A stretch of 64,000 bases of DNA from Longimicrobiales bacterium (lineage in GTDB: Bacteria; Gemmatimonadota; Gemmatimonadetes; Longimicrobiales; Gaopeijiaceae): positions 1,440,001-1,504,000 of the forward strand of contig OZ241869.1 of the NCBI GenBank assembly GCA_965202805.1, read 5' to 3'. Below the pieces are notes generated by a model, which was not told the DNA's origin, did not search any database, and saw nothing but the letters and a program-made list of their open reading frames with translations. The position numbers and the translations under genes were made by a program. Each line of letters begins with the position of its first letter. Position 1 is the first letter of the stretch. Below are positions 45,531 through 63,474 of the stretch, piece by piece.

Positions 45531-45617
45531 GATCCGGTGCACAACCGACAGGCGACCGGGCTCATCGACAGCAACCGATTCCTGCCCCTCGTCAGGCCTG
45601 GTCCGTATGTTGCGAGT

Positions 45618-46724
45618 ATGTCTACCCAGGTAACGGCCGGGCCTCCCGGCCCGGTTCTCGTGACGGGCGGGAACGGCTACATCGCGTCCTGGCTGGTCAG
45701 GCGACTGCTCGAACGCGGTTTCGACGTCCACGCGACGGTGCGCGACACCGGTGATCCCACCAGGACCGACCACCTGACCGCGGTCGCGAGGGGTCATCCC
45801 GCAACGCTGACCCTGTTTGACGCGGACCTCCTGGAGGCCGGCGGGTTCGATCGCGCGATGGCGGGGTGCCATATCGTCTTCCACACGGCTTCGCCGCTGA
45901 TCGTGCGGGACGTGGTGGATGCCGAGGGCGACCTTGTGCAGCCGGCTGTCCGCGGCACCCGCCACGTCCTGGAAGCCGCGAACCGGACTCCCTCCGTGCG
46001 GCGCGTGGTGCTTACCTCAAGTATCGTGGCCGTCTACGGCGACGCCGCGGATCTCGAGGGAATCGAGGCGGACCGATTCGACGAGAGCCATTGGAACTCG
46101 ACCAGCAATGCGCACCACCAGCCGTATTCCTACTCCAAGACCCTGGCGGAGCGGCTGGCGTGGGAGATGGCGGACGGACAGCACCGGTGGGATCTGGTCG
46201 CCGTGAACCCCGGCCTCGTTCTCGGACCGGGCCTTGGCCGGCACACGAGCGCCGAGGGTGTCCTGATCATGCGCGATCTCGGGAACGGCTATTATCGTTT
46301 CGGCGCCCCCGAGCTCGAATTCGCCATCGTGGATGTCCGCGATGTCGCGGAGGGTCACCTGCGCGCCGGGTTGATCCCGGAGGCCCGAGGCCGGCACATT
46401 CTGGTCGGTGAGACGCTGGGCCTGATCGAAGTCGCTTCGATTCTGCGGAATCACTTCGGCGACGGCTATCCGTTTCCGCGTCAAACCGTGTCGAAGGTGG
46501 TTGCCCTCATGCTCGCGCCCCGGCGGCGAATCCCGCAGGCCGTGGCGCGGCGCAACATCGGCTATCCACTCAGGTTCGACAACCGATACGCGAGAGACGC
46601 TCTCGGAATCACCTTCCGCCCCGCGGCGGAGTCGATTGTCGACCACTTCCGGCAACTACTGGACGACGGCCTGGTTTCGCGCGCAAGGCGAGACTCCCGA
46701 GACGCGCGGCGCCGTTTGCGTTAG
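45618..46724 (+). CDS. Extended SDR, NAD(P)-dependent aldehyde reductase / dihydroflavonol-reductase-like
   Basis: VLVTGGNGYIA, HTASP, LTSS, PYSYSK (YxxxK), VDVRDVA. Start ATG 45618 lies 6 nt after TATGTT (possible leaderless mRNA). Confidence 0.9.
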   Translation: MSTQVTAGPPGPVLVTGGNGYIASWLVRRLLERGFDVHATVRDTGDPTRTDHLTAVARGHPATLTLFDADLLEAGGFDRAMAGCHIVFHTASPLIVRDVVDAEGDLVQPAVRGTRHVLEAANRTPSVRRVVLTSSIVAVYGDAADLEGIEADRFDESHWNSTSNAHHQPYSYSKTLAERLAWEMADGQHRWDLVAVNPGLVLGPGLGRHTSAEGVLIMRDLGNGYYRFGAPELEFAIVDVRDVAEGHLRAGLIPEARGRHILVGETLGLIEVASILRNHFGDGYPFPRQTVSKVVALMLAPRRRIPQAVARRNIGYPLRFDNRYARDALGITFRPAAESIVDHFRQLLDDGLVSRARRDSRDARRRLR

Positions 46725-47582: not shown

Positions 47583-48296
47583 TCAGGCTCCCCGCGTCGG
47601 CACGTCGCGGAACGGCAGCGACGGCGAACCGAAGGTGATCTCCTGCACCGCCTTCACGCTGCGGCCGCCGTACCGGAAGGGGATCACGAGACGGAACGGG
47701 GCGCCGTTCACGGGAGGGAGCGGCTCGTCGTTGAGCATCCACACGAGCATCGTCTGGGGATGACGCATGGTGGGGACTTCCTCGTCCGTGTAGTAGCCGT
47801 CGTGGGAGATGACGCGGCAGTAGTGCGCCGTGGGCGCCAGGCCGATCATGTCCAGGACGTCGTTGAAGCGGACGCCGGTCCACTTGACGATGCCTGTGGG
47901 CCGGGGCGCTCCGCACTGGAGCAGGGTCACCATGGAGTGCCGGGGGAGGTCCGCCAGGTCCTCGTAGCGCAGGGTGCCATGCAGGCGGGTGAGCCTGCTT
48001 GCGGCGATGCGGATGCTCGCGGTGCGGTAGTCGAGGTCGGTGTCGGGAGCCTCGCCCCCGGTGTATCGGTAGATGACGCCATCGATGGGCCCCGCGGAGC
48101 CCGGGGGATGCTCGGGCGCCGAGCCGTCGGCGTTCAGCGGCAGATCGGCGCGCGTCCGGATCTCGCCCTCCACCAGCCGATCCGGGAACTCCTGGGCTTC
48201 CTGCGCCAGCACCCGGTCCGGCTTCACCACCCCCATGGAAAGGCCGGCCACAGCCGTCCCCGATACCTTGATCGCGTCGCGTCGTGTGAGCTTCAT
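47583..48296 (-). CDS. Tat-exported molybdopterin-dependent oxidoreductase (sulfite oxidase/MsrP-like catalytic domain)
   Basis: LTRRDAIK twin-arginine signal; LQCG (Mo-ligand Cys), KWTGV, LPPVNGAPFRLVIPFRYGGRSVK; GGAGG RBS. Confidence 0.85.
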   Translation of the reverse strand: MKLTRRDAIKVSGTAVAGLSMGVVKPDRVLAQEAQEFPDRLVEGEIRTRADLPLNADGSAPEHPPGSAGPIDGVIYRYTGGEAPDTDLDYRTASIRIAASRLTRLHGTLRYEDLADLPRHSMVTLLQCGAPRPTGIVKWTGVRFNDVLDMIGLAPTAHYCRVISHDGYYTDEEVPTMRHPQTMLVWMLNDEPLPPVNGAPFRLVIPFRYGGRSVKAVQEITFGSPSLPFRDVPTRGA

Positions 48297-48512
48297 GGCG
48301 TGCCTCCCGGGCGTGGTGTTATGAGCCTGTCAACGGGGGTCAAGGTAGGATGAGGGGAGGGGGACGGCAAACGCGACGGCGGGTGGGATCGGGCTGCACT
48401 TCTGACCGGGAATCAGTGCGCAGTCTCTCGGTCCGGGTGGGACATCGTCAGGAGGCCGTACGCCTCCGCGGAGGGTGGCGGGTCCCCAGAGGTTGGACGA
48501 GCTGGCTCGTGT

Positions 48513-48540
48513 TACCATATGCCATATACCATATGAAGCA
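48513..48540 (+). repeat. Left island-flanking direct repeat TACCATATGCCATAT, inside three RCCATAT heptamers
   Basis: 48513-48527 is identical to 63454-63468; both are followed by CCATATG(A/T)AGCA. Confidence 0.8.
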
Positions 48541-48656
48541 GCTGGCGTTCGGCGGTACACCGGGGCCAACGCGCTCACGTCATGGCAAGCGCGGGCCGAA
48601 GTAAGGCACCGGACGCCTGGAAGGATCAGGAGCTGTCTGGTCGAAGCTGTCTCCGA

Positions 48657-51419
48657 CTACGATCGCTCCACGTTGACGTGGCCGCCCAAGCCCATCTCTT
48701 CGAGAATCTGCCGAAGCTCCGCTTCCATTTCGCGCGCGCGTTCCGAGTCGACGGTCACCGACAGCTCGATGCGCGCTCTGAGGTCGCTTCCAGACCTCAT
48801 CTTCGGCAACACCTTGATCCCGATCCGATTCCATGTCTCGGGCGGCACGGTTCCGACCAGCCGGAGTGTCGCCTCTCGCGCGGTCGGCTGCGTCTCCGTA
48901 GTCGGGTCAGTCTCCGACGTCAGAACGAGTGGCGGCCCAACAGGCGGCTCTGGCCGATCGGGCTCGGGGGCCGGGGACCGGAGCTCCTTGGCCTTGGCCC
49001 TGGTGAGCAGAAACATGCCGGCCTCGAAGACGACATCGTCCGGCGCAACCACCTCGTCGTGCCACACCCGATGGTACTCGCCACCGCTGCCGCTACCGGA
49101 GGCCAAGCCGAAGGTTCCATTCCCCACAAACTCCACGATCTTCCCGCGAAGCACGGCGTCTGGATCCACGAGGCGGGTAAGCGAGCCGTCGAGAAAGCTC
49201 TGGCGAAGCCCGGTCAGCGGCCAGGCGCCAGCTTCCTTCAGAGCAGGCGGCCAATGCCGCTCGATGTACCCGGCGCCCACGGACTCATTGAGGATGGCCT
49301 CCGACTTCAAAGCGCCAACGATCCGGCCACACAGGCTTTCGCTCGCACTGGCGTGACCGGCGCCAAGATCGATTACCCTCAGTCCCGTCCTGGACTTTGC
49401 ATCGCTGAATGCCACGAAGCGATAGCCTGCCCATACCTCGTCCCTCGCTTCTTCCTCGGCGCTCCTCACCTTCCTCCGGATATCGGCCCGTTCGGCGTGA
49501 TCGAACTCCGTTCCCAGAACCCCCTCTCTCACCTCGCGCTCGACCCGCTGCCAAGCGAGCCACAGTTCCACGCGTTCATGCAGTTCGCGGCCCGGTTTTT
49601 TCACGCACCATACCAGCGAACCCGGATACAACCGGGGAGACCTACCTCTTTCCTGTGTCCAGCCCGCGATATGCTCCGGTGCCTGACCATCGGCTCCCCA
49701 TTCCGTATCTGGATTCGCGATGACAAGCTTGAGGTGTGGCGAGTCCTGAATCTCCGTACTCTCCTCGGGGAACGAGACGACCCGCAGACTAGCACCCCGC
49801 GCGAACTCGTCTCGGACCAGCGTGCGGATGGCCGGATTGACCTCCTTCTCCCTGTCCAGTGACGCGCGGCGGTCGCTTACAACCTTCCTGAGCGTGGCCT
49901 GATGGTGGATCTTGAAACCGTCCGTCCCCACCTTGTGGATGAAGAAGCCCGATCCCTCTAGCGCCGCAGCGGCGTTGTCTATGGTCGTTGTCTCGACGTC
50001 CGGCTCGCCCAGCGCGAACCTCAACTCGGGCAAGTGAGCCACCTTGTCGACTTGTCCGCCGGACGATTCGAAGAGGATGGCTGCGCCAACACGGCGATGG
50101 ATGTCGCGGAGCGGACCCTTGGTATCCGCGTCCAATGCTCTGGCATGCGCCTCGCTTCCCGCGATATCCGCGATGATGGCAGCGTCGAGCCTCGATTCTC
50201 CCAACTGACCAAGGATGGTGCTTCGGAACCCTGAATCGTGGAGGGGCGCCGAACCCAGCGTGATCAACTGTTCCGTTCTCGCTTCCCTGAAGTGAGTTCG
50301 CGACGCCCAAGAAACCCATTGAGCCAGCATGGCCAAGGCTCCCCGGGTTTGCTGGAATTGCGGAAGCGCTCGCCATTTCCGCTGAAACACCGAAAGGGTT
50401 GCGGGATGGAACGGATAGCAGGCCTGGAACCGACTTCGGAGAGCATCCCTCGCTCTGGCCTCGGTTGTCGCCGTATCCACGGCCGTCCATTGGGGGGGAA
50501 GGCGGTTGCTCCTCTCGAAGCACCAGTCCGCATAGCTCCTGGCGATCCGGTTGCGGATTCTCGGGCTTCCCAGATCATCGAACAGCCTTCGGCGCACGAC
50601 CTCCCCGATCTCCGCCTCGTCATTGGCGATCAGATCACGCGCCACTCGACGCACAACCTTGGTGATGCGCTCCTGCCACTGCTGATCCCAGTCGGTCATT
50701 TCGACTTGGCTGCGGGGCAGACTGATGACCGCCGCCGCTTGCGTCCTACCCGTAACAGCAACGGTGAGGTTCTGGATGAAGGCGTGGAAGCCGTCTGCCA
50801 TGCCTCGGTGCCTGTTGACGAAGTTCAGGACTTCGTCGAACAACAACAGCACGGGCGCATCCGCGAGTGCGAATACCCTTCCGATGGCCTCCGTGCCCGG
50901 GGGAGTCGTGCTTGCGGCAGATCCGAGCGCCGCAACCCCCTGCTCTCCCGCCAGCTGACGGGCCATGTCGATCCACAAGGTCTCACGGCCTTCAGCCGGA
51001 TCCCATGCGTTGCCGACGAACACCGCAACCCGCGCTGCGGGAACTTGCCCGACACCCGTCTCGCGAAGGAGTGCCGGCACTCCTGGGAACCGCGCCGCGC
51101 CCAGTCCCGCGCTCGCCAGATGATACAACCCTGTCAGCGTATGGGTCTTGCCTCCCCCGAACTGGGTGATGAGGGTCAGCACCGGAGCGGTGTTCTCGCT
51201 CCGCCCCGAAAGGCGTCGTAGCACCATTCCGGAGTGCTCCTTCAACGCCCTCGTGAAGCAGGTTCGGGAGAAAAACTGACCGGGTTCCCGGTAGTCTTCC
51301 GGCGCGGTCCCGGCGACGACCTGCTCCAGCGCGATGGCGAACTCGTCGGGGCTGAAGGACCGCCCCTCGCGGACTTCCTTCCGGAGGGTGGCGACTTTGT
51401 ACCAGGGGTTACGGGTCAT
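48657..51419 (-). CDS. DUF499-family AAA+ ATPase
   Basis: PWYKVATLR, FFSRT, Walker A QFGGGKTH, Walker B LLLFDE, YPFHP, FQQTRGAL. Start moved to ATG 51419. Confidence 0.9.
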   Translation of the reverse strand: MTRNPWYKVATLRKEVREGRSFSPDEFAIALEQVVAGTAPEDYREPGQFFSRTCFTRALKEHSGMVLRRLSGRSENTAPVLTLITQFGGGKTHTLTGLYHLASAGLGAARFPGVPALLRETGVGQVPAARVAVFVGNAWDPAEGRETLWIDMARQLAGEQGVAALGSAASTTPPGTEAIGRVFALADAPVLLLFDEVLNFVNRHRGMADGFHAFIQNLTVAVTGRTQAAAVISLPRSQVEMTDWDQQWQERITKVVRRVARDLIANDEAEIGEVVRRRLFDDLGSPRIRNRIARSYADWCFERSNRLPPQWTAVDTATTEARARDALRSRFQACYPFHPATLSVFQRKWRALPQFQQTRGALAMLAQWVSWASRTHFREARTEQLITLGSAPLHDSGFRSTILGQLGESRLDAAIIADIAGSEAHARALDADTKGPLRDIHRRVGAAILFESSGGQVDKVAHLPELRFALGEPDVETTTIDNAAAALEGSGFFIHKVGTDGFKIHHQATLRKVVSDRRASLDREKEVNPAIRTLVRDEFARGASLRVVSFPEESTEIQDSPHLKLVIANPDTEWGADGQAPEHIAGWTQERGRSPRLYPGSLVWCVKKPGRELHERVELWLAWQRVEREVREGVLGTEFDHAERADIRRKVRSAEEEARDEVWAGYRFVAFSDAKSRTGLRVIDLGAGHASASESLCGRIVGALKSEAILNESVGAGYIERHWPPALKEAGAWPLTGLRQSFLDGSLTRLVDPDAVLRGKIVEFVGNGTFGLASGSGSGGEYHRVWHDEVVAPDDVVFEAGMFLLTRAKAKELRSPAPEPDRPEPPVGPPLVLTSETDPTTETQPTAREATLRLVGTVPPETWNRIGIKVLPKMRSGSDLRARIELSVTVDSERAREMEAELRQILEEMGLGGHVNVERS

Positions 51420-51455
51420 GGCGAATTCCCATCCTCCCACGTTGACTCACATTGC

Positions 51456-52742
51456 TCATTCAAGTGTCAGCTTGTTGAAATAGTGATCCAGGTCATTCAG
51501 ATTGGCACACAGTTGGACATCGGACGTGAGCAAGAGCTTCAGCACGGTGTTTTTCGCAAGCATCCGAATCTCGTCTCGCTCTCCTTTCGTCACCTCGTAG
51601 TGTCCGTCATGGACGATCTTAGAACGAATACGGTACAACTCCTTCGTTCGCTTGGCTATCCTTGCACGTTCCTCAACATTCCTTCCGAGCACCCTTGCTA
51701 CCCGTTGCGACAAACGGAAACTAAGTTCCTGTTTTTGAATCGGTAGCAAGACACACTCCAGAGAGATGGCGAACTGCAGAAACGATTCTTCCAACGTGGC
51801 CGCCACGCTGGCTCGGCCTCCCCAGCGGACTGAGTTTAGTAATATCTTTTCTGTCTTGTTGGGGTGTTTCTGGCATAACATATTCTCCACATGTTCCACC
51901 GCCTTCGCGATGGGCTCCGCACCTTCTCGGAGTTTGGTTAGGGACACGTGACCGAGCGGCCTTACTCGCGGCGGATCGTCGCCTTGTATGGATCCATCGG
52001 GTGCCACGGCCAAACGTAGAACAGGATGGCTCGCGGCAGCGTCGGGTGGGGGAATGAACAGCCAAGCCAAACAATACGGGATAAGATCTGAAAAAAAGTT
52101 CACGCATTCTATCGCAGCCCTTACTTGTCGCTCTCCAAGTACGACGGCAGCCCTCCCGTCTCGGGCCTCCGCAGTAACGATTGCGATCGGACGATCTAGT
52201 AGCGACTCAGACACTATGTCTTCAAAGTATGCGATGCTGGCTGACTCATCGGTGCCAAGCTCAACGTTCCGATGAGAAGTCAGAGCCGAAATCCGCTCTT
52301 CGTCACACTTCAAAAAACGGACCGGTCCAAAACGCGCTGGCAGAGATTCCGCGTCGAGCCCCCCAACAGGCACCCAGCACTTGTACTCTTTGGGTGAACT
52401 CTTCAGAACAGTCCTAAGCGTTGTGAGCGCATTGTTGATCCGAACATTCGGATCGCGGCTCCGTTGTTTTGGTATATCGACGGATTCGAAGACGGCATCC
52501 CTCAGAGCTGAATCGACGGCATATTCGGACAGGTCTTCTTGGCGAGCGAATTTGGTCAGAATCTCTTGAACGACCCGTCGATACTCTCTACTCAATTCAG
52601 CATCCAAGAACAGCATTCCCTCGCCATCCTTGGACCAAAAGGCGCCGGTGGGTGGGGGAAGGGTTCCAGGAACGGACCGAGCTGCCACCCCGACCCGCTC
52701 AAGAAAACTGCGCACGAATCGGAGACCCTTGGAGTGGCTCAC
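51456..52742 (-). CDS. HEPN-domain protein (ApeA/MAE_28990-like), putative RNase effector
   Basis: C-terminal ISLECVL...LSFRLSQRVA...LYRIRSKIVHDG (RxxxxH). GTG 52742 overlaps the upstream TGA. Confidence 0.8.
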   Translation of the reverse strand: MSHSKGLRFVRSFLERVGVAARSVPGTLPPPTGAFWSKDGEGMLFLDAELSREYRRVVQEILTKFARQEDLSEYAVDSALRDAVFESVDIPKQRSRDPNVRINNALTTLRTVLKSSPKEYKCWVPVGGLDAESLPARFGPVRFLKCDEERISALTSHRNVELGTDESASIAYFEDIVSESLLDRPIAIVTAEARDGRAAVVLGERQVRAAIECVNFFSDLIPYCLAWLFIPPPDAAASHPVLRLAVAPDGSIQGDDPPRVRPLGHVSLTKLREGAEPIAKAVEHVENMLCQKHPNKTEKILLNSVRWGGRASVAATLEESFLQFAISLECVLLPIQKQELSFRLSQRVARVLGRNVEERARIAKRTKELYRIRSKIVHDGHYEVTKGERDEIRMLAKNTVLKLLLTSDVQLCANLNDLDHYFNKLTLE

Positions 52743-54856
52743 GCTGCCCTCCCCCAACGCCGCTGGACGTACCTGACCGTATCCTTCACCGACAATGGCC
52801 GAGTCGCATTTCCGGTCCGAAGGTAGAATGTGGCGATGTTGCGCTCCTCCACGTAGACGGGTTCATCGCTGGACTCAACGGTAATCTGGCAGATGTCCGC
52901 CCCGTCGATCTCGTGGAATGTTATCGTCAGATAGGTCGACGATACGGGTCCTAGGTCGCGGGCGATGATCTGCTGCAGGTGGAGTTCGAAACCGTCCCTG
53001 TCGCTCTTCCTCAGGGTGGCGTAGTCGTCATCGATCCCGACCGCCGCACCCGAATCGTCTACACCGATGAGGAGCGTTCCGCCCCTGGCGTTCAGGAATC
53101 CGGCCAAGGTCTTGGCTACGACCTTTTCGAGGCCCTTGTTCACTCCCTCTAGCCGCCGGTCCCAGCGGAGACTCGACTTGAACTCAACGGCTTCGCTTTC
53201 TCCGGCAACCATCATCTGCCGAACGCTATGCTCATCGGTGCGTCCCTCTTCGCCTCTGGGGATCCAGCCAGCGATGAACTCGTTGATCGCACGGGCCAAC
53301 AGGGCACGGCGTGCGGCGAGAAAGTCGAGGTAGTTGTCGGGATCCCAGAGTTCGCGGTCCAGTGGGATGGACTGCGCCCGCAGGACACCGGGCTGGTTCT
53401 CGTTGACTTCGGGAAGGTACTCGGCGGGCGCCGAAGAACGGACCTCCCTCGGTGCCTTCTGCGTTAGGAACACCCGGTTGGCCAGCTCGTTGTTGGTCTT
53501 CCGGTCTCGATTGGAGTCGAAACCGGCCTTCTTTAGCACGGGAAGCGAGAAGACGTGGTGGCGGTCCAACACGTTGCTTCGCCCCATCGCTCTGTCGTAA
53601 ATGCGAATCCCCGTGAACCAATCTCGGGAACCTCTTGCCTGTGCCACAATCTGGGCCAGGGGTGCAGCAGTGGAACGCACGCCCGCTTCGACCAAGTCCG
53701 ACGTTTCAAGCGTCACTCGCCCGCGCTCGCGGAGAATCGCGGCCTCCAACTCCGGCGTGGGATCCGGGTCACTGCCCGTCACTAGGGCGACATCCTGTTG
53801 GAGCTTGGTCTCGGTGGCGCCGGAGTAGCGGGCCCACAGACCCGCCAGATAGATCCAGCGAATGAACCGCCGCTTGAGACTCTCGTTCGGAAAGCTCCCA
53901 CCCTGGCGCGCAAGAAAAATCGTGGCGGGCATGAGCATGTAGGTGGTGGGAAGGTCCTTGGCGTTGCCAACGAACGCTTCGTGTCGCAGCACGGCCACCA
54001 AGTGCTCGAACGCGGGCTGCATATCCCTCCATCCGGCTTGCAGCACCTCTGCGGGGGTCCGCAAGAAGGAACCCTCGAGCCGGATCGAGTCCGTCGCAAC
54101 ACCGGCCAGACACCTCAGGAAAAAAGCGAAGTCCATGGCAAAGCCCCGATCCGCCATCTTCGCCTGAAACTCCCGCATCTCCGCCCTGGCTTCCGGCCAG
54201 ATGCTGCAAACGTGCGCCAGCGCGAGGTCCGCAGCCTTCAGCGGCGTCCCCTTGCTGTTGATCCGATTAAAGATCTCGACGACTTCCGACACCCCGAACT
54301 CATCACCCGACACTTGGTCGATGGTGTATCGGTAGTCCCGGATCTGGTCGAGGCGACTGAGGTTGGCGAGATTCTGCTGAAACACGTCCCGCTCTTCCTC
54401 GTCGAGTTTCGGCATCCTCCTGAGCAGACCGTGCAGGGTCTCGCTCAGGAAATTGTGGACTCCGATCCATGCCGGGTTTTTCTGCATCCGGGTTTTCTGC
54501 CAGAAACGGAACTCCTCCGTTTGCACGTTGAAGTACAAGTCGAAGAACAGGCTCTCGCCTTCGTAGAACCGGGGAGGCCTTCCCCTGAACAACACGTAGA
54601 GCGTCGTCAAGCGCTGCTGTCCGTCCAGGAGGAGCAAGGACTTTCCGTCATCCGACGGGTCTGCGCCACGAACCACCGAAGGCTTGTAGGTGCTCCAGAT
54701 CAGCAGATGTCCCGTGGGATGTCCGCGGTAGAGAGACTGCATCAATCCCCGCACCTGTTTGCGGGTCCAGACGTATCCCCGCTGGAATTCGGGGAGCAGG
54801 ATTTCGTTCCGGCTGATCTGGTTCAGCAAGTACTCGATCGATCTCACCTCATGCAT
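52739..54856 (-). CDS. DUF262 (GmrSD-like) - HNH-like - Schlafen/AlbA_2 fusion protein
   Basis: LPEFQRGYVW, LDGQQRLTT, FNRINSKG (DUF262); DRHHVF...NELAN (DUF1524-like); ESEAVEFKSS and GFLNARGGTLLIGVDD (AlbA_2). Confidence 0.85.
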   Translation of the reverse strand: MHEVRSIEYLLNQISRNEILLPEFQRGYVWTRKQVRGLMQSLYRGHPTGHLLIWSTYKPSVVRGADPSDDGKSLLLLDGQQRLTTLYVLFRGRPPRFYEGESLFFDLYFNVQTEEFRFWQKTRMQKNPAWIGVHNFLSETLHGLLRRMPKLDEEERDVFQQNLANLSRLDQIRDYRYTIDQVSGDEFGVSEVVEIFNRINSKGTPLKAADLALAHVCSIWPEARAEMREFQAKMADRGFAMDFAFFLRCLAGVATDSIRLEGSFLRTPAEVLQAGWRDMQPAFEHLVAVLRHEAFVGNAKDLPTTYMLMPATIFLARQGGSFPNESLKRRFIRWIYLAGLWARYSGATETKLQQDVALVTGSDPDPTPELEAAILRERGRVTLETSDLVEAGVRSTAAPLAQIVAQARGSRDWFTGIRIYDRAMGRSNVLDRHHVFSLPVLKKAGFDSNRDRKTNNELANRVFLTQKAPREVRSSAPAEYLPEVNENQPGVLRAQSIPLDRELWDPDNYLDFLAARRALLARAINEFIAGWIPRGEEGRTDEHSVRQMMVAGESEAVEFKSSLRWDRRLEGVNKGLEKVVAKTLAGFLNARGGTLLIGVDDSGAAVGIDDDYATLRKSDRDGFELHLQQIIARDLGPVSSTYLTITFHEIDGADICQITVESSDEPVYVEERNIATFYLRTGNATRPLSVKDTVRYVQRRWGRAA

Positions 54857-54960
54857 ATGCCATCCTCGGTACTGCGGCGCTCGATGGGCTCAGTAGTCTC
54901 GACGGACGGTAACATATGTGCCGACGCAAGGCTCGCCCATGCCGCAGCATCGGACCAGCG

Positions 54961-55563
54961 CTACCCGGAAGACTCCACAAGCCGCTGGATGCACCGGATC
55001 GCCCGCTTCAGGCTGTCCGACCGCTCGGAAGCGATCGGCGGACGCCACTTGGTGCTGGCGAACTCGGCCAACCGGGACGTGTAGGCGGGTCCAACGGCTC
55101 GGCCGCTGCCGCTACGCGGCACCATATCTTCGCGGATGTCTCGGCGACGTGAGCGGCGTGCGAGGTTGGCGACGAATTCCTTTGGGTTGGTCACACTCTC
55201 GGGGTCTTGAGGGATCCGGCTTTTCGCCACACTCAGAAAGCGCGCTGCCGCCTCGCGATCCGCCAATAACCAGGTCTCCACTTCGCGCAGGGCGATGCGA
55301 AAGCAAAGATGCGGAGCAGGATTCGGCAGCCATTCCGCGCGGAGGACCGCCGCGCAATCGGCGTCGTTATCGAGGTCCACAAGGATAACCCAGGGCGCGT
55401 GGCGGGCGGCCTGATTGAACCCTCCGATTCTCTGCTTGAGATAGGGCTTTCCACGGCGTCCATAGACGGTGCCGGTATCGCCGCCGGCATGCCTGATCAG
55501 CCTGCGCACGACGGCTTCGTCCACGACTCCTTCGACTGCCGCACTGAAGACGGATAGGGGCAA
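54961..55563 (-). CDS. TOPRIM-like / DUF4276-like protein, partner of the ABC ATPase
   Basis: AVEGVVDE, LVDLDND (DxD), REVETWLLAD, C-terminal SDSL. Start inferred at TTG 55563, 4 nt after the ATPase stop. Confidence 0.75.
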   Translation of the reverse strand: MPLSVFSAAVEGVVDEAVVRRLIRHAGGDTGTVYGRRGKPYLKQRIGGFNQAARHAPWVILVDLDNDADCAAVLRAEWLPNPAPHLCFRIALREVETWLLADREAAARFLSVAKSRIPQDPESVTNPKEFVANLARRSRRRDIREDMVPRSGSGRAVGPAYTSRLAEFASTKWRPPIASERSDSLKRAIRCIQRLVESSG

Positions 55564-55567
55564 TGGC

Positions 55568-56707
55568 CTACGCGTCCGCAAAAAGTGCGAGTTGGCCGGG
55601 ATTGGTCGGACGAGTCCTAGGGATGACCACGTCGGCCAGCGAAAGGCCAGCATCAAGGAGCTGCTTCACGTCCGAGAGCGAGGTCGTGGGGAAAACCTTG
55701 GCGCCTTCCTTCTGCGGCACGAACAACAGGGTCTCGTCAAGGCCGATCCCGCTGTCCGCCAGGAGATCCGGCGAATGGGTACTCAAGAAGACCTGCCTCC
55801 TGGTGTGTCGTTGCACCCGTGCCAGCATCTGAGGTAACACGCGCACGATCTCTGGATGCAGCGAGAGCTCCGGCTCTTCCAGCAGCAGCGGTCCCTTACC
55901 ATCCATCGTCGCCCACAACACTCCCATCAGGCGAAGGGTGCCGTCCGACAGCTGCCCTTCGCTTTGCCAGGCACCGTGCGGTCGCCAGTGCTGGTATCTG
56001 GCGCGCAGGTGAGGAACACCCCGGACATCCCGCGTCAACTCGATCTCCTCCAGTTGAGGGACGGCGACACGGAGAGCCGTCTGGATCTTGCGCATGCGCG
56101 CGTTCCGCGTTCGCTCGTTCGTTCGGGCGACCTGTTCCAGGAAGTCTCCGCCGTAGGGGTCGTTGGATCTTCCTACCGAGCGATCCGGCTCGCGGACGAG
56201 CTGAGGCACGATGTGGAGGTAGCGGATGGAAGCGAAGAACGTGGACAGGGCGCGGAATTCCAGGTTCACGTTCACCTGTTCAAGATGGGTCTGCGTCAGG
56301 CGAGCTGCGTCGTCACGGTCATCCTGGTCGGGGCGTTCAAGAATCGTCTGGCCATCTCGAATGACTCGCTCGCTCCGCACCAACGGCCTGCGCTGATTGT
56401 CCTGGTTGAAGGCCAGTTGGTAGTCCCAGGAGTGGCCTTCGCCGTTCTCGAGTTCCACATCGATCTCGATGTCGGAGTATCGGCGGGCCGCGAGACAGCG
56501 AATCGTGCTCACGCCGTCCCGCCGACGGACGGCTTCGCCGAAGCCGCCCCCCACCGAAGCAAGATCCCGAAGGAAGCGAAGCGCATCCAGAAGATTGGAC
56601 TTCCCGGAGGCGTTGGGACCCACCAGAAACATCCGATCCTGGAGGTCGACCTCAACGCTCTCGAAGTTCTTCCAGTTCTTCAGGCGGAGCTTGCGGAATC
56701 GAAGCAT
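55568..56707 (-). CDS. Soluble ABC-type ATPase (AAA_21/AAA_15)
   Basis: LKNWKNF, Walker A GPNASGKS, signature LSDGT, Walker B LLLEEPE, H-loop STHS. Start moved to ATG 56707. Confidence 0.9.
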   Translation of the reverse strand: MLRFRKLRLKNWKNFESVEVDLQDRMFLVGPNASGKSNLLDALRFLRDLASVGGGFGEAVRRRDGVSTIRCLAARRYSDIEIDVELENGEGHSWDYQLAFNQDNQRRPLVRSERVIRDGQTILERPDQDDRDDAARLTQTHLEQVNVNLEFRALSTFFASIRYLHIVPQLVREPDRSVGRSNDPYGGDFLEQVARTNERTRNARMRKIQTALRVAVPQLEEIELTRDVRGVPHLRARYQHWRPHGAWQSEGQLSDGTLRLMGVLWATMDGKGPLLLEEPELSLHPEIVRVLPQMLARVQRHTRRQVFLSTHSPDLLADSGIGLDETLLFVPQKEGAKVFPTTSLSDVKQLLDAGLSLADVVIPRTRPTNPGQLALFADA

Positions 56708-56747
56708 GGCAGTGGGTTCGCGAGTTGTCAGCCCTACACGTCGCAGG

Positions 56748-59699
56748 TCACCTTGGAACCGCCAGCAACATGGCGTCCAAGAGGCGTTTTTCCTGGCTAC
56801 CACGAGGATACAGGGCGGAGAGCGCGTTGGCGAGACGCAGGAACTCCGGTCCCCGATCCTGTTCCTCGCTGATCAGCCTCCGAAGGGCGTTCGTGTGGCC
56901 GCTCCGCTGGAGTAGCATGGCCGCGTGAACGCGATCAAGGGTGGTTGCGTCGGGTTCCCGGAGTTCAGCATCACTGCCGAGGATCTTGCCCTTGCGACCA
57001 CGAACGGCTCGTGGTGCCCCAGTTGGTTCCCAGTCGGGGAAGAGGGTCGCTTGAAGATCGGCGTCCTTCTCGAGCTTCCCCGCCGCGACGGAAGCACCTT
57101 CTTCACCGAAGAGTTCCTTAGCCCGCTTGGCCACGGGTAGGAGACGCACAATCCCCTTCTTTTGCTCGATTATTCGATTCGTCCATCGGTCGAGGTTGAT
57201 GCCCATCGGCTGTGCGAAGCGCCGGACAACGTCGAACGGCAGGCTGAGACCCTTGGCAACCGCCTTCGCGATGGCTTCCTCGTCCCTCCTAGCCTTGTTC
57301 TTCTCTTCGGGCTGTTCAGTGCTCTGAAGTGTCCAAAGGAAAAGCGCGGTCAGCCGCGAGTCTTCCTCAAGAGCCCCAATCTGGCCTCCAAAATCTGTCG
57401 ATCTCGCTGTCCCCAATACTCGTTGAAGCGCTGTCCGGCCAACAACCTCCCAGATCTTCTCTAGGTATTCCGGCAGCTTGACCCTTCGCCCCGCGGGTGT
57501 TTCGACAGCACGGTAGCGACTGAAGATTTCCAAGGCGGGCCCGATACACGCAAATACCAAGTCCGCACCACGGATGCCTTCGGCCTGCAAGCGCTCAATC
57601 CAGTCGGCGACACGGCCCGGCAACTCCTGCAGGACTTCGCTCCAATCCCCAATTGGAGCTTCGTTAGCACGTGGTCGACAGACTAAATGGACGCTGGTAG
57701 CGAGCGCAGCAGAATCCCGAGCACGGAGACGCGCACTCCTCTCGGTCGCGATTGGCCATGATGCAGTAATCGTCCATCCGCCTCGGATCATTCCGGCAAG
57801 CAGTGCTTCCCATCCTTCCGTGGTCTTGTGCGCAAAAACAACGCAACCTATTCCCTCGCTATTCAGCACCCGGCAGCCTTCCGCGAAGGTTTTGGACATC
57901 ATCTCTTCGAACCACTCACGGTCCTTTGGGCGACCTTGCACTTGTTTAGTCTTGTCCTGGACGATCTCGGATCGTTTCGGCGATAGAGGGTTGTCAGGAT
58001 CAAAGGGATCTCGTAGTACCGCGTGATCGGGCAGCGCTCGTTTCAGCCACACCAAGAAGAAATCCGACAGATCGGAGTATGGTATCGCATCGTAGTAGGG
58101 CGGATCCGTGAACCATACATCACTGGTCTCATCAGGCAGAGGATGTTGAATCGAATCTGCGAGCTCAGTCTGTCCCACGTGCGTTAGGTCGCGAACGCTC
58201 TTCTCAATGCAGTCAGCAACGTCTTTGAAACAGTTTTTTAGTCCACCTGCATAGGACACATCGGGATACATTTCCGGGAAATCCCAAGACATCGGTAGCG
58301 TTTGCATTCCAAACGCTCCGGCAACAGTCTCGCTCTTCCTGTGCCATTTGCTAAGCACGTTGCAATGCCGAAGGAGTTTCCCCAATGACAACGCTACCAG
58401 ACGCTGAAGTGCTTGTGTTTCCATTACTGCACTGTTTGCCAATCGCGACAAGAGCAATATAATGGCCATTTTTTGGCGGGCTGTGAACAAGTCTTGCCAT
58501 TCAAGTATCCCATATCGTTGAACACGAAAACCAAGAGTGCCGACCGGTGGCAATCGTTCGTCCGGCACGGGACAAGCGCCCTTCCTTCCGAGTCGCTCCC
58601 ATTTCTGGAGGATGTCCGCAAGCCGGTCTTGCGAGCGGCGCACAGCCTCATAGTCGGCCTCACATGGTGACCTGTAATACCGCCTCTTCGCGCCCGGTGG
58701 TACGGTCGCCACTGCCATCATCCGTGCTCCACCAATGCGACAACCCTCTTCGTCAAAGACAACATCGGTACCGCCGCGTTGGATCGCAATCTGATGTCGT
58801 ACTCGCTCACGGGACAGCACCGAGCCACAGCAAAGGCAGGTTGCTTTGGCTCCGGACACAGTCGCACCACCTACCTCGCTGGCCGAAATCGGCTTGAACA
58901 ACTCAAACGCAAGTCTCGGCTGACTTCCAGCAGCCCGGATTATCCGATGCCGAAGTGCCCGCCTGCGCTTTGGCTTTTGACACAACCAAAAGGAACGCAT
59001 CAGCGGAATTTCTGCGCCGCAAGCTGGCGCTTCACAGCGCACTGTACGCGCCCAGAGAAAGGCAAACGGAGTCGCTCCGTCGGGGTCAGCAGGAAATAGC
59101 TCAGCCAGATCTTGTTCCGCCTGCCGTCGAGTATCGTTGGCGACGCGACGAAACTCGTCAATCAACGGTCCCCCACCCCGTGGGATGTCGTCTAGGAGTG
59201 CCTTAAGTATGAGGCACGCCACAGGATTCAGATCGCTAGCAAAGGTGTCACAACCCAACCGGAGAGCTTCGAATGGAATTGATCCACCACCCGCGAATGG
59301 GTCTACCACTAAGGGAGATGCCGGGCCGTGGGCAGCACTGACCAGGGCCCGTGCCACCCGAAGGTATATGGGATGGCCAGCCATCTCCCAACTAGAAAAG
59401 ACACCAATGAACCAGAGCAATGCCTTTCGCAGTTCCATGTCGTTCGCCGGGCGACGACGAATTTCTTGCAGGATTTGCCGGGCTTGTTTCTTGAAACCGC
59501 TTGGACAATGGTCGTCGCATGGGTCTGGTAGCAGCAATGCGATTAGCAATCCCCGACAGGAAGCCAACGGCCTCCGAGCCCACCAAAGATGAAGCTTAGA
59601 CGGGTGGCCCAGAGTTGTATTCTGTCGGACAGCATGCCGGGATACTTCGGCTATCGGAAAATCTACCTCAGCAAGGCGTTTGCAACTCCTAGGAATCAT
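56748..59699 (-). CDS. DUF1156 adenine-specific DNA methyltransferase with Zn ribbon
   Basis: LHLWWARRPL, motif I DPFAGGGSIP, motif IV TDPPYYD, Cys clusters CEAPAC and CLCC. Start moved to ATG 59699. Confidence 0.9.
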   Translation of the reverse strand: MIPRSCKRLAEVDFPIAEVSRHAVRQNTTLGHPSKLHLWWARRPLASCRGLLIALLLPDPCDDHCPSGFKKQARQILQEIRRRPANDMELRKALLWFIGVFSSWEMAGHPIYLRVARALVSAAHGPASPLVVDPFAGGGSIPFEALRLGCDTFASDLNPVACLILKALLDDIPRGGGPLIDEFRRVANDTRRQAEQDLAELFPADPDGATPFAFLWARTVRCEAPACGAEIPLMRSFWLCQKPKRRRALRHRIIRAAGSQPRLAFELFKPISASEVGGATVSGAKATCLCCGSVLSRERVRHQIAIQRGGTDVVFDEEGCRIGGARMMAVATVPPGAKRRYYRSPCEADYEAVRRSQDRLADILQKWERLGRKGACPVPDERLPPVGTLGFRVQRYGILEWQDLFTARQKMAIILLLSRLANSAVMETQALQRLVALSLGKLLRHCNVLSKWHRKSETVAGAFGMQTLPMSWDFPEMYPDVSYAGGLKNCFKDVADCIEKSVRDLTHVGQTELADSIQHPLPDETSDVWFTDPPYYDAIPYSDLSDFFLVWLKRALPDHAVLRDPFDPDNPLSPKRSEIVQDKTKQVQGRPKDREWFEEMMSKTFAEGCRVLNSEGIGCVVFAHKTTEGWEALLAGMIRGGWTITASWPIATERSARLRARDSAALATSVHLVCRPRANEAPIGDWSEVLQELPGRVADWIERLQAEGIRGADLVFACIGPALEIFSRYRAVETPAGRRVKLPEYLEKIWEVVGRTALQRVLGTARSTDFGGQIGALEEDSRLTALFLWTLQSTEQPEEKNKARRDEEAIAKAVAKGLSLPFDVVRRFAQPMGINLDRWTNRIIEQKKGIVRLLPVAKRAKELFGEEGASVAAGKLEKDADLQATLFPDWEPTGAPRAVRGRKGKILGSDAELREPDATTLDRVHAAMLLQRSGHTNALRRLISEEQDRGPEFLRLANALSALYPRGSQEKRLLDAMLLAVPR

Positions 59700-59889
59700 G
59701 CGGACTTCTGGTCCTTTTCGTAAGGTAATCCAAGGGTTCCCGAAATGCTGAAGAGTTGATGCTGGAAGTGCGTACAATAGTTGCGGATGTGGTCACGATC
59801 ATCGATCCGTGCCCTAGAGACTTGATCCCCACAACTACGGAGCAGCCAATGGACCGGCGGTCGTGGGCCAGCGACGGAGCGCCCATCAT
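59689..59889 (-). CDS. Possible 66-aa ORF bridging helicase and methylase
   Basis: ATGA overlap with the helicase stop and 11-bp overlap with the methylase start; no recognisable motif. Confidence 0.25.
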   Translation of the reverse strand: MMGAPSLAHDRRSIGCSVVVGIKSLGHGSMIVTTSATIVRTSSINSSAFREPLDYLTKRTRSPHDS

Positions 59890-62800
59890 GATCTATCCCT
59901 TCTTGAGATTTCGTACGATCCCTCATCTTCTCTAATCTTCATAGGTTGGATGATTGCATCAACCTCCAGCCAGTAATGTTGCACCTTCGTGACTTCACGC
60001 CAAGGACTGCGCGCAGGATCCGGCACGGGCTCCTGGAGCTGCGGTTCGCCCGCACAATTCGTAACCACATAAAGCCAGTAGCAGTCTGGACGATCCTCCG
60101 CTACTCGTCGCTCGTTGGGGGTGAGCAGTATCGTTCCCTTGGCCCCGGCCAGACCCTTGATCTCGATTAGCCGAAGTTCGCCAGAGCGGAGGTCAAGACT
60201 GGTGATGTCGTAGCCCAAGTTCTTCTCGTGAACGTCCGTGACCTGACACCCCCGCGACTCTTCGTAGTCCATGACGACGCACATGGCGGTCATCTCGGTC
60301 TCAGGATTGGGTCGCAACCGGCGGACATCCGGTGATCCGCGCTCGGGATGCGGCAGGACCAACACGCTAGCCAGCCGCTCGACCCCTTGGAGCGTTACCG
60401 CACGCTGACGGGTTAGCTCCTCCCGACGTTGATTGCGGCGCGCCATGACGTCGTCGTGTCTGGCTTCAGCCTGAGCAAGTCGTCCCTGGGAGCCCGTGAC
60501 TCCCCTTGTAACCTCGTCGGCAGCGCGACCGATTTCATCGTCGATCCGCTGCAGGACTTCGGTCAAAGACAGTTCGACATGCCTTGCGATACGGTCGGAC
60601 TCGGCCAGACGATCCTCCCGAACCTCCTTGATGAAGGGCATCAGCGCATGCTGGCTGAGCCACGAGGTCGGGTCGGGCAGAGCGGCGGCGGGCGGTAGTT
60701 CATGAGGCACAGGAGCGGGGATGAGGTTACCCAGGGCATCTGCTTCCCTCAGTGTCGGCGTCCCGTCGCATGCCAATTCGACCGTGAAGAGCCGCTCGTG
60801 GATCACCTTGCCGAGCCCATCCACGACACGAGCACGGTAGAAGTCGAGGCGAGAAGGCTCATCCTGCGCGATCGAATAGAAGCAGGCACCTGCGGAAAAG
60901 GCCTCCTGTGCCCGGTCGCGGGCATGCCGCCGGAGCGCCTCGAAGAGCGGATGTCCCGGAGTGACCCACTCAAGATGATGTTTCTCAGCGACCTTGCGAT
61001 CCGTTGAGAGACGGGGATAGCGCACGGCAAGGTCCTGGAGTTTCCAATCTGCTTCGCGCTCATATCTCCTCAGGGACAGCGGCGTCCGTCCCGGGGCAAA
61101 GGTGTGTGCGGGGCGGCGGAGCGGCTTCAGGGGCAGGCGAGCATCCCGGGCGCACTCGTTGATGAATCGCGCGATCGTCTCCGGCACCATGCGGCGTTCC
61201 TGGGCCCGCGCCTTGCGCTCGACCAGCATATCGAGGTTCAACTTCCTCGCGGCCAATCCCTCCAGTGCATTCTGGCAGATGCTGCGGAAGTGGCCCTCAT
61301 CGACATTCTTCAGGAGCCGTTCCTCAAGATCCTGGTGGCCTAGCCTGCCGGCGTAGTAGTCCCGAAGGACGCGTTCGACCTGTGCCGAAGGGAGCACTTC
61401 GCCCACCACGTTGAACACCGCGTCATCGTCCAAAGCGTCCCGGATCTCCTGAAGCTTCTGGTGCAGCCGCCCCAGCACCCGTCCTTCGATGGTGTTGGTG
61501 GCGACAAAGTTGAAGATCAGGCAGTCCTCCTGCTGTCCGTAGCGGTGAATCCGGCCCATGCGTTGCTCGAGCCGGTTCGGGTTCCAGGGGATGTCGTAGT
61601 TGAACAGGATGTGGCAGCACTGGAGGTTGATGCCTTCGCCGGCCGCCTCGGTGGCCACGAGAACCTGGATGGCGCCCTCGCGGAATTGCTGCTCCACGTA
61701 GAGCCGTGTTCCGGGTTCGTCCCGCGATCCCGGCTTCATTCCCCCGTGGATGCACCCGACTACAAAGCCCCAGGCTTCAAGCCTTTGCATCAGGTAGGAG
61801 AGGGTGTCCTTGAACTCCGTGAAGATCAGGAGACGCTGGTCGGGTCTGTCGAAGAACCCCTCCTCCTGCATGATCTGGTGGAGATGCGCGAGCTTCGCCT
61901 CGTTTCCGGAGTCCTCGACTGCCCTCGCCTCTTCCGCCAACTCTTTGAGTTCCGCGATTTCCGCCCGTACCTGCTCCGCGTTGCCGGCAAGCGTAATCGC
62001 TTCCAGCATCCGCTCCAGGCGCTCGCGCTCCACGTCTTCGTACTCCTCCAACTCCTCGAGGTCGGGCAGGTCCGGCGGTGCCGTACGGGCCAGACGTTCG
62101 GCCTGTCGCAGTCCATCATCGAGACGCTTGGCCCGGTTCTCCAGCGACCGGCGCAGGGAGTGCGTACTGGAAGCAAGCCGTCTCTGGTAGAGCGACATCA
62201 GGAAACCGACGGCGCGGGCGCGCGGATCATTGCTTCGCTCGGCCGCCCGGCGGCTTTGCCGCTTCACAAATCGCGTCACACGCGTGTAGAGGTCGAATTC
62301 CGCCCCATCGATCCTGAAGTCGGCCGTGCGGGGGATGCGCTTCGTGAAGACCGGTTGCGCGGCCCAGGTACCGTCCGATTGCCGTGTCGGGAAGTAGACC
62401 ATCGCTTCCTTTGTACGACGCAGGTAGAACGGCGCCCTCTGTCGTTCCATGGCCTCGTTGATGGAACGCACGTCGGCGTATGCATCGCGGTCCAGCAACT
62501 GAAGGAAGAGCGTGAAGTTCTTCGCATCACCCTTATGCGGCGTGGCTGTCAGCAGCAGGATGTGGTCCGCCGCGTCGCGCAGGATCTCTCCCAGCTTGTA
62601 GCGCAGGCTCTTGTGGCCTTCGTCGCGCGCCGACATTCGATGCGCCTCGTCGACGATGACGAGGTCCCAGCCTGCCTGCTGTAGTCCGGGAAGGATATCC
62701 TGGCGCTTGGCGAGATCAAGCGAAGTGATGACCTGGTTCTGCTCAAGCCACTGGTTGACGCCGAACTGGTCGCGGATGTCGCTCCCCTTCAACACGATGA

Positions 62801-63338
62801 ACTTCTCGTCGAACTTCTCCCTCAGCTCCCGCTGCCACTGGAAGGAGAGGTTGGCGGGACAGACCACGAGAACGCGTTCGATGAGGCCTCGTAGCTTGAG
62901 TTCGCGGACGAGCAGGCCCGCCATGATGGTCTTGCCGGCACCCGCGTCGTCGGCCAAGAGGAACCGCACGCTGGGAAGCTTGAGGAGGTGTTCGTAGACG
63001 GCCTCCAACTGATGCGGAAGCGGGTCGACGCGCGAGATGGACAGCCCGAAGTACGGATCGAACTCGTAGGCGATGCCGAGCGAGTAAGCCTGGAGTCCAA
63101 GGCGGAGAAGCCGGCCATCGCCATCGTAGGACAGAGCGGCGTCGGCGATGGTTAGGCTGGCTACGTCACTGGATGTGAGGGTTACCCGACGGAATCGCTC
63201 GGACCGCATGCCGACCAAGCCTACCATCCAGATGTCGGAACCGCTCGCTCGCACGGTCTCCACCTGCATCGGCTCGCTGAACAAGGGGCCGGTGACGATC
63301 TGGCCTTCCTGCAGCGTGGTTGGGTCGGATGTCGTCAT
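59886..63338 (-). CDS. SNF2-family helicase with C-terminal DUF3883 (PD-(D/E)xK-type) nuclease domain
   Basis: PLPHQ, LADDAGAGKT, DEAH, TATPH, GEGINLQ, QRMGRIHRYGQ; C-terminal GYDITS...IEIKG...LTPNE. Confidence 0.92.
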   Translation of the reverse strand: MTTSDPTTLQEGQIVTGPLFSEPMQVETVRASGSDIWMVGLVGMRSERFRRVTLTSSDVASLTIADAALSYDGDGRLLRLGLQAYSLGIAYEFDPYFGLSISRVDPLPHQLEAVYEHLLKLPSVRFLLADDAGAGKTIMAGLLVRELKLRGLIERVLVVCPANLSFQWQRELREKFDEKFIVLKGSDIRDQFGVNQWLEQNQVITSLDLAKRQDILPGLQQAGWDLVIVDEAHRMSARDEGHKSLRYKLGEILRDAADHILLLTATPHKGDAKNFTLFLQLLDRDAYADVRSINEAMERQRAPFYLRRTKEAMVYFPTRQSDGTWAAQPVFTKRIPRTADFRIDGAEFDLYTRVTRFVKRQSRRAAERSNDPRARAVGFLMSLYQRRLASSTHSLRRSLENRAKRLDDGLRQAERLARTAPPDLPDLEELEEYEDVERERLERMLEAITLAGNAEQVRAEIAELKELAEEARAVEDSGNEAKLAHLHQIMQEEGFFDRPDQRLLIFTEFKDTLSYLMQRLEAWGFVVGCIHGGMKPGSRDEPGTRLYVEQQFREGAIQVLVATEAAGEGINLQCCHILFNYDIPWNPNRLEQRMGRIHRYGQQEDCLIFNFVATNTIEGRVLGRLHQKLQEIRDALDDDAVFNVVGEVLPSAQVERVLRDYYAGRLGHQDLEERLLKNVDEGHFRSICQNALEGLAARKLNLDMLVERKARAQERRMVPETIARFINECARDARLPLKPLRRPAHTFAPGRTPLSLRRYEREADWKLQDLAVRYPRLSTDRKVAEKHHLEWVTPGHPLFEALRRHARDRAQEAFSAGACFYSIAQDEPSRLDFYRARVVDGLGKVIHERLFTVELACDGTPTLREADALGNLIPAPVPHELPPAAALPDPTSWLSQHALMPFIKEVREDRLAESDRIARHVELSLTEVLQRIDDEIGRAADEVTRGVTGSQGRLAQAEARHDDVMARRNQRREELTRQRAVTLQGVERLASVLVLPHPERGSPDVRRLRPNPETEMTAMCVVMDYEESRGCQVTDVHEKNLGYDITSLDLRSGELRLIEIKGLAGAKGTILLTPNERRVAEDRPDCYWLYVVTNCAGEPQLQEPVPDPARSPWREVTKVQHYWLEVDAIIQPMKIREDEGSYEISRRDRS

Positions 63339-63453: not shown

Positions 63454-63474
63454 TACCATATGCCATATGTAGCA
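63454..63474 (+). repeat. Right island-flanking direct repeat TACCATATGCCATATGTAGCA
   Basis: First 15 bp identical to 48513-48527. Confidence 0.8.

Follow-up and report, generated by a model that had tools for sequence, protein, structure and literature searches.

A gene in a 64,000-nucleotide stretch of the genome of a Longimicrobiales bacterium (contig OZ241869.1, positions 1,440,001 to 1,504,000; hereafter the window) encodes a single polypeptide of 705 amino acids (aa) in which a DUF262 domain of the GmrSD/BrxU type, a helical middle region, an HNH-like domain and a C-terminal Schlafen (AlbA_2) domain follow one another. It is the fifth of seven minus-strand genes of an operon, in the order hmaA, hmaB, HEC-01A, HEC-01B, the fusion gene, a 433-aa gene and hmaC, which is, judged by sequence matches, an Hma (type-1 BREX-related) system with four embedded passengers. 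In this lineage the DNA-cutting site of the HNH domain appears to have been lost and the RNA-cutting site of the Schlafen domain kept, so that the old restriction enzyme is probably a sensor only.

Domain layout of the fusion protein

The reading frame contains no internal stop, and the sequence GAGGA sits 6 nucleotides 5' of its ATG. Pfam finds GmrSD_N (E 1.5e-31, 110 bits against a cut-off of 33) followed by SLFN_AlbA_2 (E 1.9e-17, 64 bits against a cut-off of 25), an arrangement that by domain definition makes the predicted protein a member of the pSlfn7 class of DUF262-Schlafen fusions. The DUF262 motifs that the original prediction had picked out lie within this first domain, FQRGYVW at residues 24-30, DGQQR at 78-82 (encoded at 54611-54625) and FNRIN at 196-200, and the DGQQR, QR and FxxxN motifs of GmrSD/BrxU proteins are thus all present; S41 aligns with S42 of BrxU. 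The AlbA_2 domain with an ExxxxEFK motif was correctly called as well. Its motif ESEAVEFK (residues 553-560) supplies the Ex4(E/D)xK triad as E553, E558 and K560, and this triad is found in 120 of 120 close homologues, defined here as the best 120 of 3672 matches at E<=0.001 among 8000 candidates scored. Because both Pfam domains are common to all of these homologues, which are 63-100% identical, the fusion is not an assembly artefact.

By sequence, the closest relative of solved structure is BrxU. The top PADLOC model is HEC-05 (E 2.6e-40), the name under which BrxU appears in Payne et al. (bioRxiv 2024.01.29.577857), and the top match in the Protein Data Bank is BrxU itself (7p9k; E 4e-13 with the single sequence, E 3e-23 with a 32-sequence profile). 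The profile aligns over residues 6-379 and, weakly, over 435-523, the latter placing an HNH-fold (DUF1524) region opposite BrxU residues 481-573. Relatives of the protein score with Pfam GmrSD_C, one of them above the cut-off; the 705-aa protein itself has no GmrSD_C score, and an NCBIfam scan of it returned no match. The same profile matches mammalian SLFN11, 14, 12 and 8 over residues ~540-670 (E 0.001-0.013). The domain limits are drawn from sequence alignments. Like BrxU, the protein has an alignable DUF262-helical-HNH core (residues 6-523) with DGQQR and the S42 equivalent retained and is embedded in a methylase-based system; unlike BrxU, to which its identity is only distant, it carries an added Schlafen domain, HH in place of DH, Pro in place of a metal-ligand Asn, and an effector predicted to be an RNase.

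A single loss of a predicted metal-ligand Asn in the HNH site

The site predicted for GmrD is D/E-H...N...N, with the final two Asn nine residues apart (PMC4619093), and BrxU function requires D474/H475, DGQQR and S42 (PMC8565348). BrxU N509 and N518 align with positions 460 and 469 of the fusion protein, in a numbering counted from the profile alignment. The HNH-like segment named in the original prediction is indeed there, as DRHHVF (431-436) and NELAN (456-460), with a weak alignment to the HNH domain of BrxU; its last catalytic residue is not. In an alignment that is ungapped against intact relatives the protein reads H433-H434...N460...P469, with Pro nine residues after N460 where the intact relatives have Asn, and Ser437 replaces the Pro of the motif. 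Since the site is H-H-N-P rather than a complete (D/E/H)-H-N-N, the protein ought not to be classed with the active GmrSD endonucleases.

The close homologues divide along the same line. The full H-H-N-N is retained in 21 of the 120, and Asn469 is gone from the other 99, position 469 being most often Pro (54 of the 120), Ser (21) or Asp (13). Tyr occupies position 434 in 38 homologues, and Asn469 is missing from every one of them. To place the loss, a 128-row FastTree (the 120 homologues and 8 outgroup rows, residues 426-482 excluded) and a 41-row IQ-TREE subset were used, the HNH motif columns being omitted from both; change counts on these trees are parsimony minima. Asn469 changes once on the FastTree, on a branch with support 81 that sets 99 rows apart as derived, and the same branch has an SH-aLRT of 97 in the IQ-TREE subset, where the loss is nested among intact rows. 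H434 accounts for 25 changes within the derived clade, whose tree length is 11.2, and for none in the 29 intact rows, whose length is 11.8 (binomial p 1e-8; p 5e-4 against the 21 near intact rows alone). The intact rows have 69 invariant columns; of these, H434, T465, P437 and N469 vary most in the derived clade, followed by a column with 6 changes, and 54 stay constant there. Because position 469 defines the groups, only 434, 437 and 465 count as independent evidence. By comparison DGQQR, S41, E553, E558 and K560 have no changes, and DGQQR, like the triad, is found in all 120 homologues.

Release of the catalytic residues has not meant release of the domain. The amino-acid rate in the derived clade is raised 1.6-fold in the HNH domain, against 1.1-1.25 in the other domains, and the ratio of nonsynonymous to synonymous substitution (dN/dS) of the HNH domain in seven Asn-less pairs is 0.05-0.17, with dS near saturation in four of them. 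The trees and alignments show that Asn469, the predicted metal ligand, was lost once in the clade and that the remaining active site then drifted. The HNH region looks like a pseudo-nuclease, its catalysis released and its fold under purifying selection.

Relation to published DUF262-Schlafen fusions

The pSlfn7 class was described by Perez Taboada et al. (2026, PMC13056530) as comprising 109 DUF262-Schlafen proteins (1.8%), and the long layout is found in 7 of the first 30 of the 109 supplementary rows (Schlafen start 553-603). With the class in print and the long layout among its rows, the fusion is already known. The tested member EcoSlfn7 cuts the plating of several phages, T7 most (538-fold); a pSlfn7 member of Enterobacter ludwigii, which is short, gave no defence, and the same was true of 5 of the 7 prokaryotic Schlafens (pSlfns) tested (PMC13056530). 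That paper works out no mechanism for pSlfn7, and its domain table has no GmrSD_C entry.

We take the sole AlbA_2 match in the UC4224 chromosome to be the EcoSlfn7 gene, an identity that had to be inferred because its coordinates are absent from the supplementary tables searched. Like the 705-aa protein, this presumed EcoSlfn7 has an N-terminal GmrSD_N and a C-terminal SLFN_AlbA_2 with Ex4ExK; it differs in being 589 aa long, borne on a P2-like prophage and HNH-less. A broad HNH profile finds no match in it and scores a 780-aa paralogue from our genome, described below, at E 2e-17. Its similarity to the 705-aa protein is at the level of motifs (E 0.004). EcoSlfn7 was therefore rejected as an orthologue of the fusion protein, which shares neither full-length homology nor the HNH-less layout of about 590 aa with it, and the validated pSlfn7 member, being short, HNH-less and barely alignable, belongs to another lineage. 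In the literature searched we found no published functional test of the BrxU-like three-domain form (DUF262-HNH-Schlafen) and no mention of HNH decay in such fusions, which the supplements of the BREX-related, Cash and Payne papers may list. The fusion class and the nesting of GmrSD genes in Hma are already published; a single traceable HNH loss with intact sisters goes further.

The wider family

To ask how general the pattern is, 150 representatives at 50% identity were reduced to 128 rows: 11 had no match in the HNH region, another 8 were excluded because of a frameshift or a break inside the motif, and 3 fragments without a tail were kept separate. In the slot after the HNH domain 58 of the 128 carry a Schlafen domain, 7 a tail with a HEPN motif (P0145, P0158, P0168, P0196, P0214, P0218 and P0257, the HNH being degenerate in 3 of them), 17 an unnamed 110-aa tail labelled restriction-fold-like by reading of its motif (such as P0159, P0170 and P0198) and 6 other tails, and 40 have none; an unnamed acidic tail of 130 aa occurs in P0232, P0239, P0247, P0258 and P0269. 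By these sequence comparisons the slot is swappable in BrxU-like proteins.

Counted on a tree of 113 rows, there are 15 changes in the Schlafen tail and 14 in HNH degeneracy. The HNH is degenerate in 17 of the 58 Schlafen fusions and in 4 of the 40 tail-less rows (Fisher p 0.025), although one of the latter is really an N-terminal fusion and others may be proteins cut by contig ends; a post-hoc regrouping finds it degenerate in 23 of 82 rows that have any presumed second nuclease and in 3 of the 45 others (p 0.005). Phylogenetically independent pairs, of which there are too few, yield a median p of 1 for Schlafen and 0.375 for any tail, and 41 of the 58 Schlafen fusions retain the HNH site. 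A general rule by which a second nuclease frees the HNH site thus finds no support in these pairs.

The same genome encodes a second DUF262-HNH-Schlafen protein, of 780 aa (G000:C1:2678016-2680358; L021:12017-14359), which has an intact H-H-N-N, is ~28-33% identical to the 705-aa protein and is encoded near a putative DNA methylase gene, outside Hma. A third Schlafen-domain gene lies at C1:3210720-3211184.

The Hma operon and its neighbourhood

The original prediction had the fusion sense phage DNA that would escape the neighbouring methylation system, and a back-up role within a methylase-based system is supported by its neighbours (Table 1), which are HmaA, HmaB and HmaC. A helicase (HmaA), a DUF1156 methylase (HmaB) and a DUF499 ATPase (HmaC), all encoded in the same orientation, identify an Hma system, renamed type-1 BREX-related (BR) in PMC12839542. 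It is type 1 rather than type 2: the helicase has NOV_C, and neither DUF3780 nor PLD, of which a PLD-helicase or DUF3780 gene marks type-2 BR (PMC12839542), was called in the seven operon proteins. The helicase-methylase-ATPase triad with same-strand passengers is that of described Hma systems (Payne 2024; PMC12839542), and so are the kinds of passenger, HEC-01, a GmrSD-like gene and a HEPN-like gene. According to Payne et al. (bioRxiv 2024.01.29.577857), embedded genes occur in 62.7% of Hma systems, GmrSD-like ones are frequent among them and defend, and embedded systems may guard the host system. The Schlafen partners that PMC12839542 describes for BREX and BR are Schlafen-histidine kinase-winged helix-turn-helix proteins, not GmrSD fusions.

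Table 1. Features of the Hma operon and of the fusion gene, in window coordinates
Feature	Coordinates	Strand	Evidence
hmaA: SNF2 helicase, C-terminal NOV_C	59886..63338	-	PADLOC HmaA E 1e-172; Pfam
hmaB: DUF1156 amino-methyltransferase, FAGGG and DPPY motifs	56748..59777	-	PADLOC (label DNA-adenine methylase), E 1e-91
HEC-01A: ABC ATPase, embedded passenger	55568..56803	-	PADLOC E 7e-157
HEC-01B: TOPRIM-like/DUF4276 protein, embedded passenger	54961..55656	-	PADLOC E 2e-66; TOPRIM label per Payne 2024
Predicted DUF262-helical-HNH(degenerate)-Schlafen fusion gene, P0001, 705 aa	52739..54856	-	Pfam, PADLOC HEC-05, BrxU match
DUF262/GmrSD_N ParB-like NTPase domain, residues 8-216	54209..54835	-	Pfam, BrxU alignment
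Helical middle domain, residues ~217-400, matching BrxU middle region	53657..54208	-	alignment only, approximate limits
HNH/DUF1524-type domain, residues ~401-535	53252..53656	-	profile alignment
HNH-domain residues H433-H434, N460, Pro469, Ser437	53555-53560 (H433-H434); 53450-53452 (Pro469)	-	alignment
Schlafen/AlbA_2 RNase domain, residues 553-688; predicted catalytic E553, E558, K560 at 53177-53200	52793..53200	-	Pfam
433-aa embedded passenger, RSKIVH (Rx4H) motif near C-terminus	51456..52757	-	motif; Atlas lead
hmaC: DUF499 AAA+ ATPase	48657..51440	-	PADLOC HmaC E 7e-92; Pfam DUF499
15-bp direct repeat, left copy	48513..48527	+	0 expected in 100 shuffles
15-bp direct repeat, right copy	63454..63468	+	0 expected in 100 shuffles

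The 433-aa passenger has no match in Pfam, PADLOC or NCBIfam. Its nearest named Atlas clusters are HEPN_Apea (score 0.85-0.89), which makes it, as a lead only, a probable ApeA-like HEPN RNase; it may be a second RNase of the operon, and the closest relative (L003) has a copy at 59% identity.

In 15 related genome loci, retrieved using peptides of the fusion protein, the flanks always hold at least part of one hma gene and in 11 all three; hma matches are found in 14, and the remaining locus has an hmaC-like gene directly upstream. Within the 11 loci with a full set the fusion gene lies between hmaA and hmaB in seven, between hmaB and hmaC in three and after hmaC in one. Identity matrices of the fusion protein correlate with those of HmaA (rho 0.38, p 0.007) and HmaC (rho 0.59, p 0.002); for HmaB there is no correlation (rho -0.07), so that the evidence for co-inheritance with Hma is mixed.

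The entire operon lies between two exact copies of a 15-bp direct repeat whose AT-rich core is nearly palindromic. A 12-mer from it occurs only twice in the whole genome, and copies lie at the same slot in two further genomes (G010 and G002); the repeat could stem from duplication of an insertion site or could serve as an operator. A stretch of ten of its bases also overlaps the start codon of the fusion gene (54854), perhaps by chance. The slot itself (window 48350-63490; L034-L043) starts beyond a molybdopterin-oxidoreductase gene (47583-48296), and the gene at its other border is presumably porphyrinogen-oxidase-like. Between these two conserved genes five genomes of the same genus have ~0.6, 1.7, 1.8, 6.0 and 8.3 kb, against 15 kb here, and across the genus the slot carries variable cargo. 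In the closest relative (L003:5995-11607; likewise G001:C1:485225-487340) hmaB and hmaC are nearly gone and the passengers retained, the fusion gene, 84-91% identical, being frameshifted near codon 255; G002 retains just its first 48 codons. Promoter and terminator scans gave chance-level results, and no tRNA genes were found within 50 kb of the operon. A biosynthetic cluster adjoins the island (window 35669-46724), with a polyketide-synthase-like frame of 2441 aa, so labelled by reading of the sequence (38185-45510), a reductase-sulfotransferase fusion (35669-38962; Pfam NAD_binding_4 and Sulfotransfer_3) and an epimerase/reductase gene nearby.

A proposed reading: a restriction enzyme turned sensor

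The reading we favor, to which we would assign a probability of roughly 45%, is that of an antiphage protein descended from BrxU/GmrSD, with the restriction enzyme converted to sensing and the Schlafen domain left as the sole nuclease. Its parts are not equally secure: an antiphage role is very probable, the Schlafen domain is quite likely the sole nuclease, and the case for modified DNA as the trigger falls somewhat short of even odds. The original prediction had coupled sensing of modified phage DNA to translation shutdown, and that idea is strengthened by the apparent loss of the HNH site.

What is known of BrxU suggests how such a protein might work. Apo BrxU forms an interlocked dimer, ATP breaks it up, and hydrolysis and re-association are required to cut DNA carrying 5-methylcytosine (5mC), 5-hydroxymethylcytosine or glucosyl-5-hydroxymethylcytosine (PMC8565348); it cuts a broad range of modified cytosines, with further modifications given in PMC13390438, and N6-methyladenine is apparently not read (PMC8565348). 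Activation of bacterial Schlafen effectors depends on a trigger and on assembly: RorSlfn5, triggered by a phage protein, and Cash cut tRNA through the same Ex4(E/D)xK triad (PMC13056530, PMC13462974), and this analogy supports the tRNase-type effector of the original prediction. With NTPase motifs and a Schlafen triad that are intact and invariant in sequences and trees, and an HNH site lost in a conserved fold, the DUF262 core would, as in BrxU, alternate between a dimeric and a monomeric state as NTP is bound and hydrolysed. It would engage phage DNA with modified cytosines that the methylase-based Hma core misses, a trigger proposed because of the BrxU/GmrSD ancestry and the retained fold. 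Re-assembly on the trigger may then align the Schlafen domains, as suggested by RorSlfn5, Cash and SLFN11, and the aligned domains would cut tRNA and stall translation, leading to growth arrest or abortive infection rather than DNA cutting. The protein would thus form a second line of defence after the Hma methylase system. Menshen (PMC12065111) and CoCoNuTs (PMC11090510) likewise couple a DUF262 sensor or type IV scaffold to RNase effectors; both are made up of several genes, among them one for an ABC ATPase or a McrB GTPase, and their mechanisms are predictions, whereas the 705-aa protein is one polypeptide with a traceable loss of its DNase site.

Several points weigh against this reading. 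Phage T7 has unmodified DNA. EcoSlfn7 nevertheless lowers the log efficiency of plating by 2.75 on T7 and by 1.0-1.2 on T2 and T4 (PMC13056530), so DUF262 need not read modified bases, although EcoSlfn7 is of another lineage. DNA does not stimulate the NTPase of BrxU, and the site with which BrxU reads modifications is stated as unknown (PMC8565348). The host genome has at least three C5-cytosine methylase genes (five matches), and because a lethal response to any 5mC would be self-destructive, the trigger would have to be narrower than that of BrxU. The HNH is called dead from its residues, H433, H434 and N460 are still in this copy, and Asp, Ser or Thr at position 469 in relatives might bind metal. 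Across the family, moreover, HNH loss and the Schlafen tail are not associated after kinship control, and we do not claim such a rule because the independent pairs are not significant.

Other explanations place the trigger or the nuclease elsewhere. The protein might be a decoy or guard, its disarmed GmrSD core baiting phage anti-restriction proteins, either GmrSD inhibitors like T4 Ip1-3 or DNA mimics aimed at Hma, whose binding unleashes the Schlafen tRNase. This would explain a fold conserved while catalysis was released, and it is plausible because each of T4 Ip1, Ip2 and Ip3 inhibits one particular GmrSD subtype (PMC12373910). Activation of RorSlfn5 by a phage protein and the strongest effect of EcoSlfn7 on T7 (PMC13056530) agree with it, as does the tight linkage of the clade to Hma in light of the guarding role suggested by Payne et al. 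Strict conservation of DGQQR and S41, however, implies a working NTP cycle, which is not obviously needed by a plain bait, and we regard the decoy as unlikely.

A nucleotide-pool sensor is a still weaker contender. ATP would keep the core monomeric, and depletion of NTPs or dNTPs during infection would allow the interlocked dimer to form and turn the RNase on, independently of phage DNA modification. The idea follows from the DNA-independent cycle of BrxU, dimeric when apo and dissociated by ATP, and fits with assembly-dependent Schlafen activity (PMC13462974) and with the action of EcoSlfn7 on modified and unmodified phages alike (PMC13056530). It leaves the purifying selection on the HNH domain unexplained, unless this maintains dimer geometry, and the closest relative, BrxU, is DNA-directed.

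The HNH domain might still cut modified DNA first, with the Schlafen domain as a second-line effector. Such a two-headed nuclease is the likely state of the 21 relatives with a complete site and of the 780-aa paralogue, and is improbable for the 705-aa protein. In its favour, H433, H434 and N460 are present in this protein, and H433 is retained in 119 of the 120 homologues. Tyr serves as a general base in PacI. The BrxU mutants N519A and E528A keep weak defence (PMC8565348), yet N469 aligns with BrxU N518, outside the residues mutated there; Pro cannot ligate metal, and H434 and P437 drift freely in the derived clade and never in intact rows. Very improbable is a role outside defence or catalysis, in which the protein would bind DNA to regulate the Hma operon and AlbA_2 would serve to bind nucleic acids. 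This notion is prompted by the near-constant Hma linkage, by the many untested proteins that Pfam AlbA_2 covers and by the lack of defence in 5 of the 7 tested pSlfns (PMC13056530), and opposed by the invariant E-E-K triad, the HEPN RNase domains in the same C-terminal slot of seven other representatives and the varying, cargo-like position of the fusion gene.

Implications

The fusion itself is not new; the handover from DNase to sensor is what would matter. If the HNH-less form still defends, GmrSD sensing would be uncoupled from cutting, and tRNA cleavage or cell arrest would provide a clean read-out for how BrxU and GmrSD recognise modified DNA. The published pSlfn7 class would then split into at least two unrelated lineages, one of them untested, and close natural pairs with the DNase on or off would be at hand. 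A bolder and doubtful generalisation is that type IV restriction enzymes repeatedly become receptors or decoys, gaining an RNase tail (Schlafen or HEPN) and abandoning the HNH, with a core that fires tRNA cleavage; the disarmed GmrSD core would then either bait anti-restriction proteins or read modified DNA. Were this true, the clade would hold both the state before (21 intact) and the state after (99 disarmed), 63-74% identical to the 705-aa protein, as a ready-made test series for the conversion.

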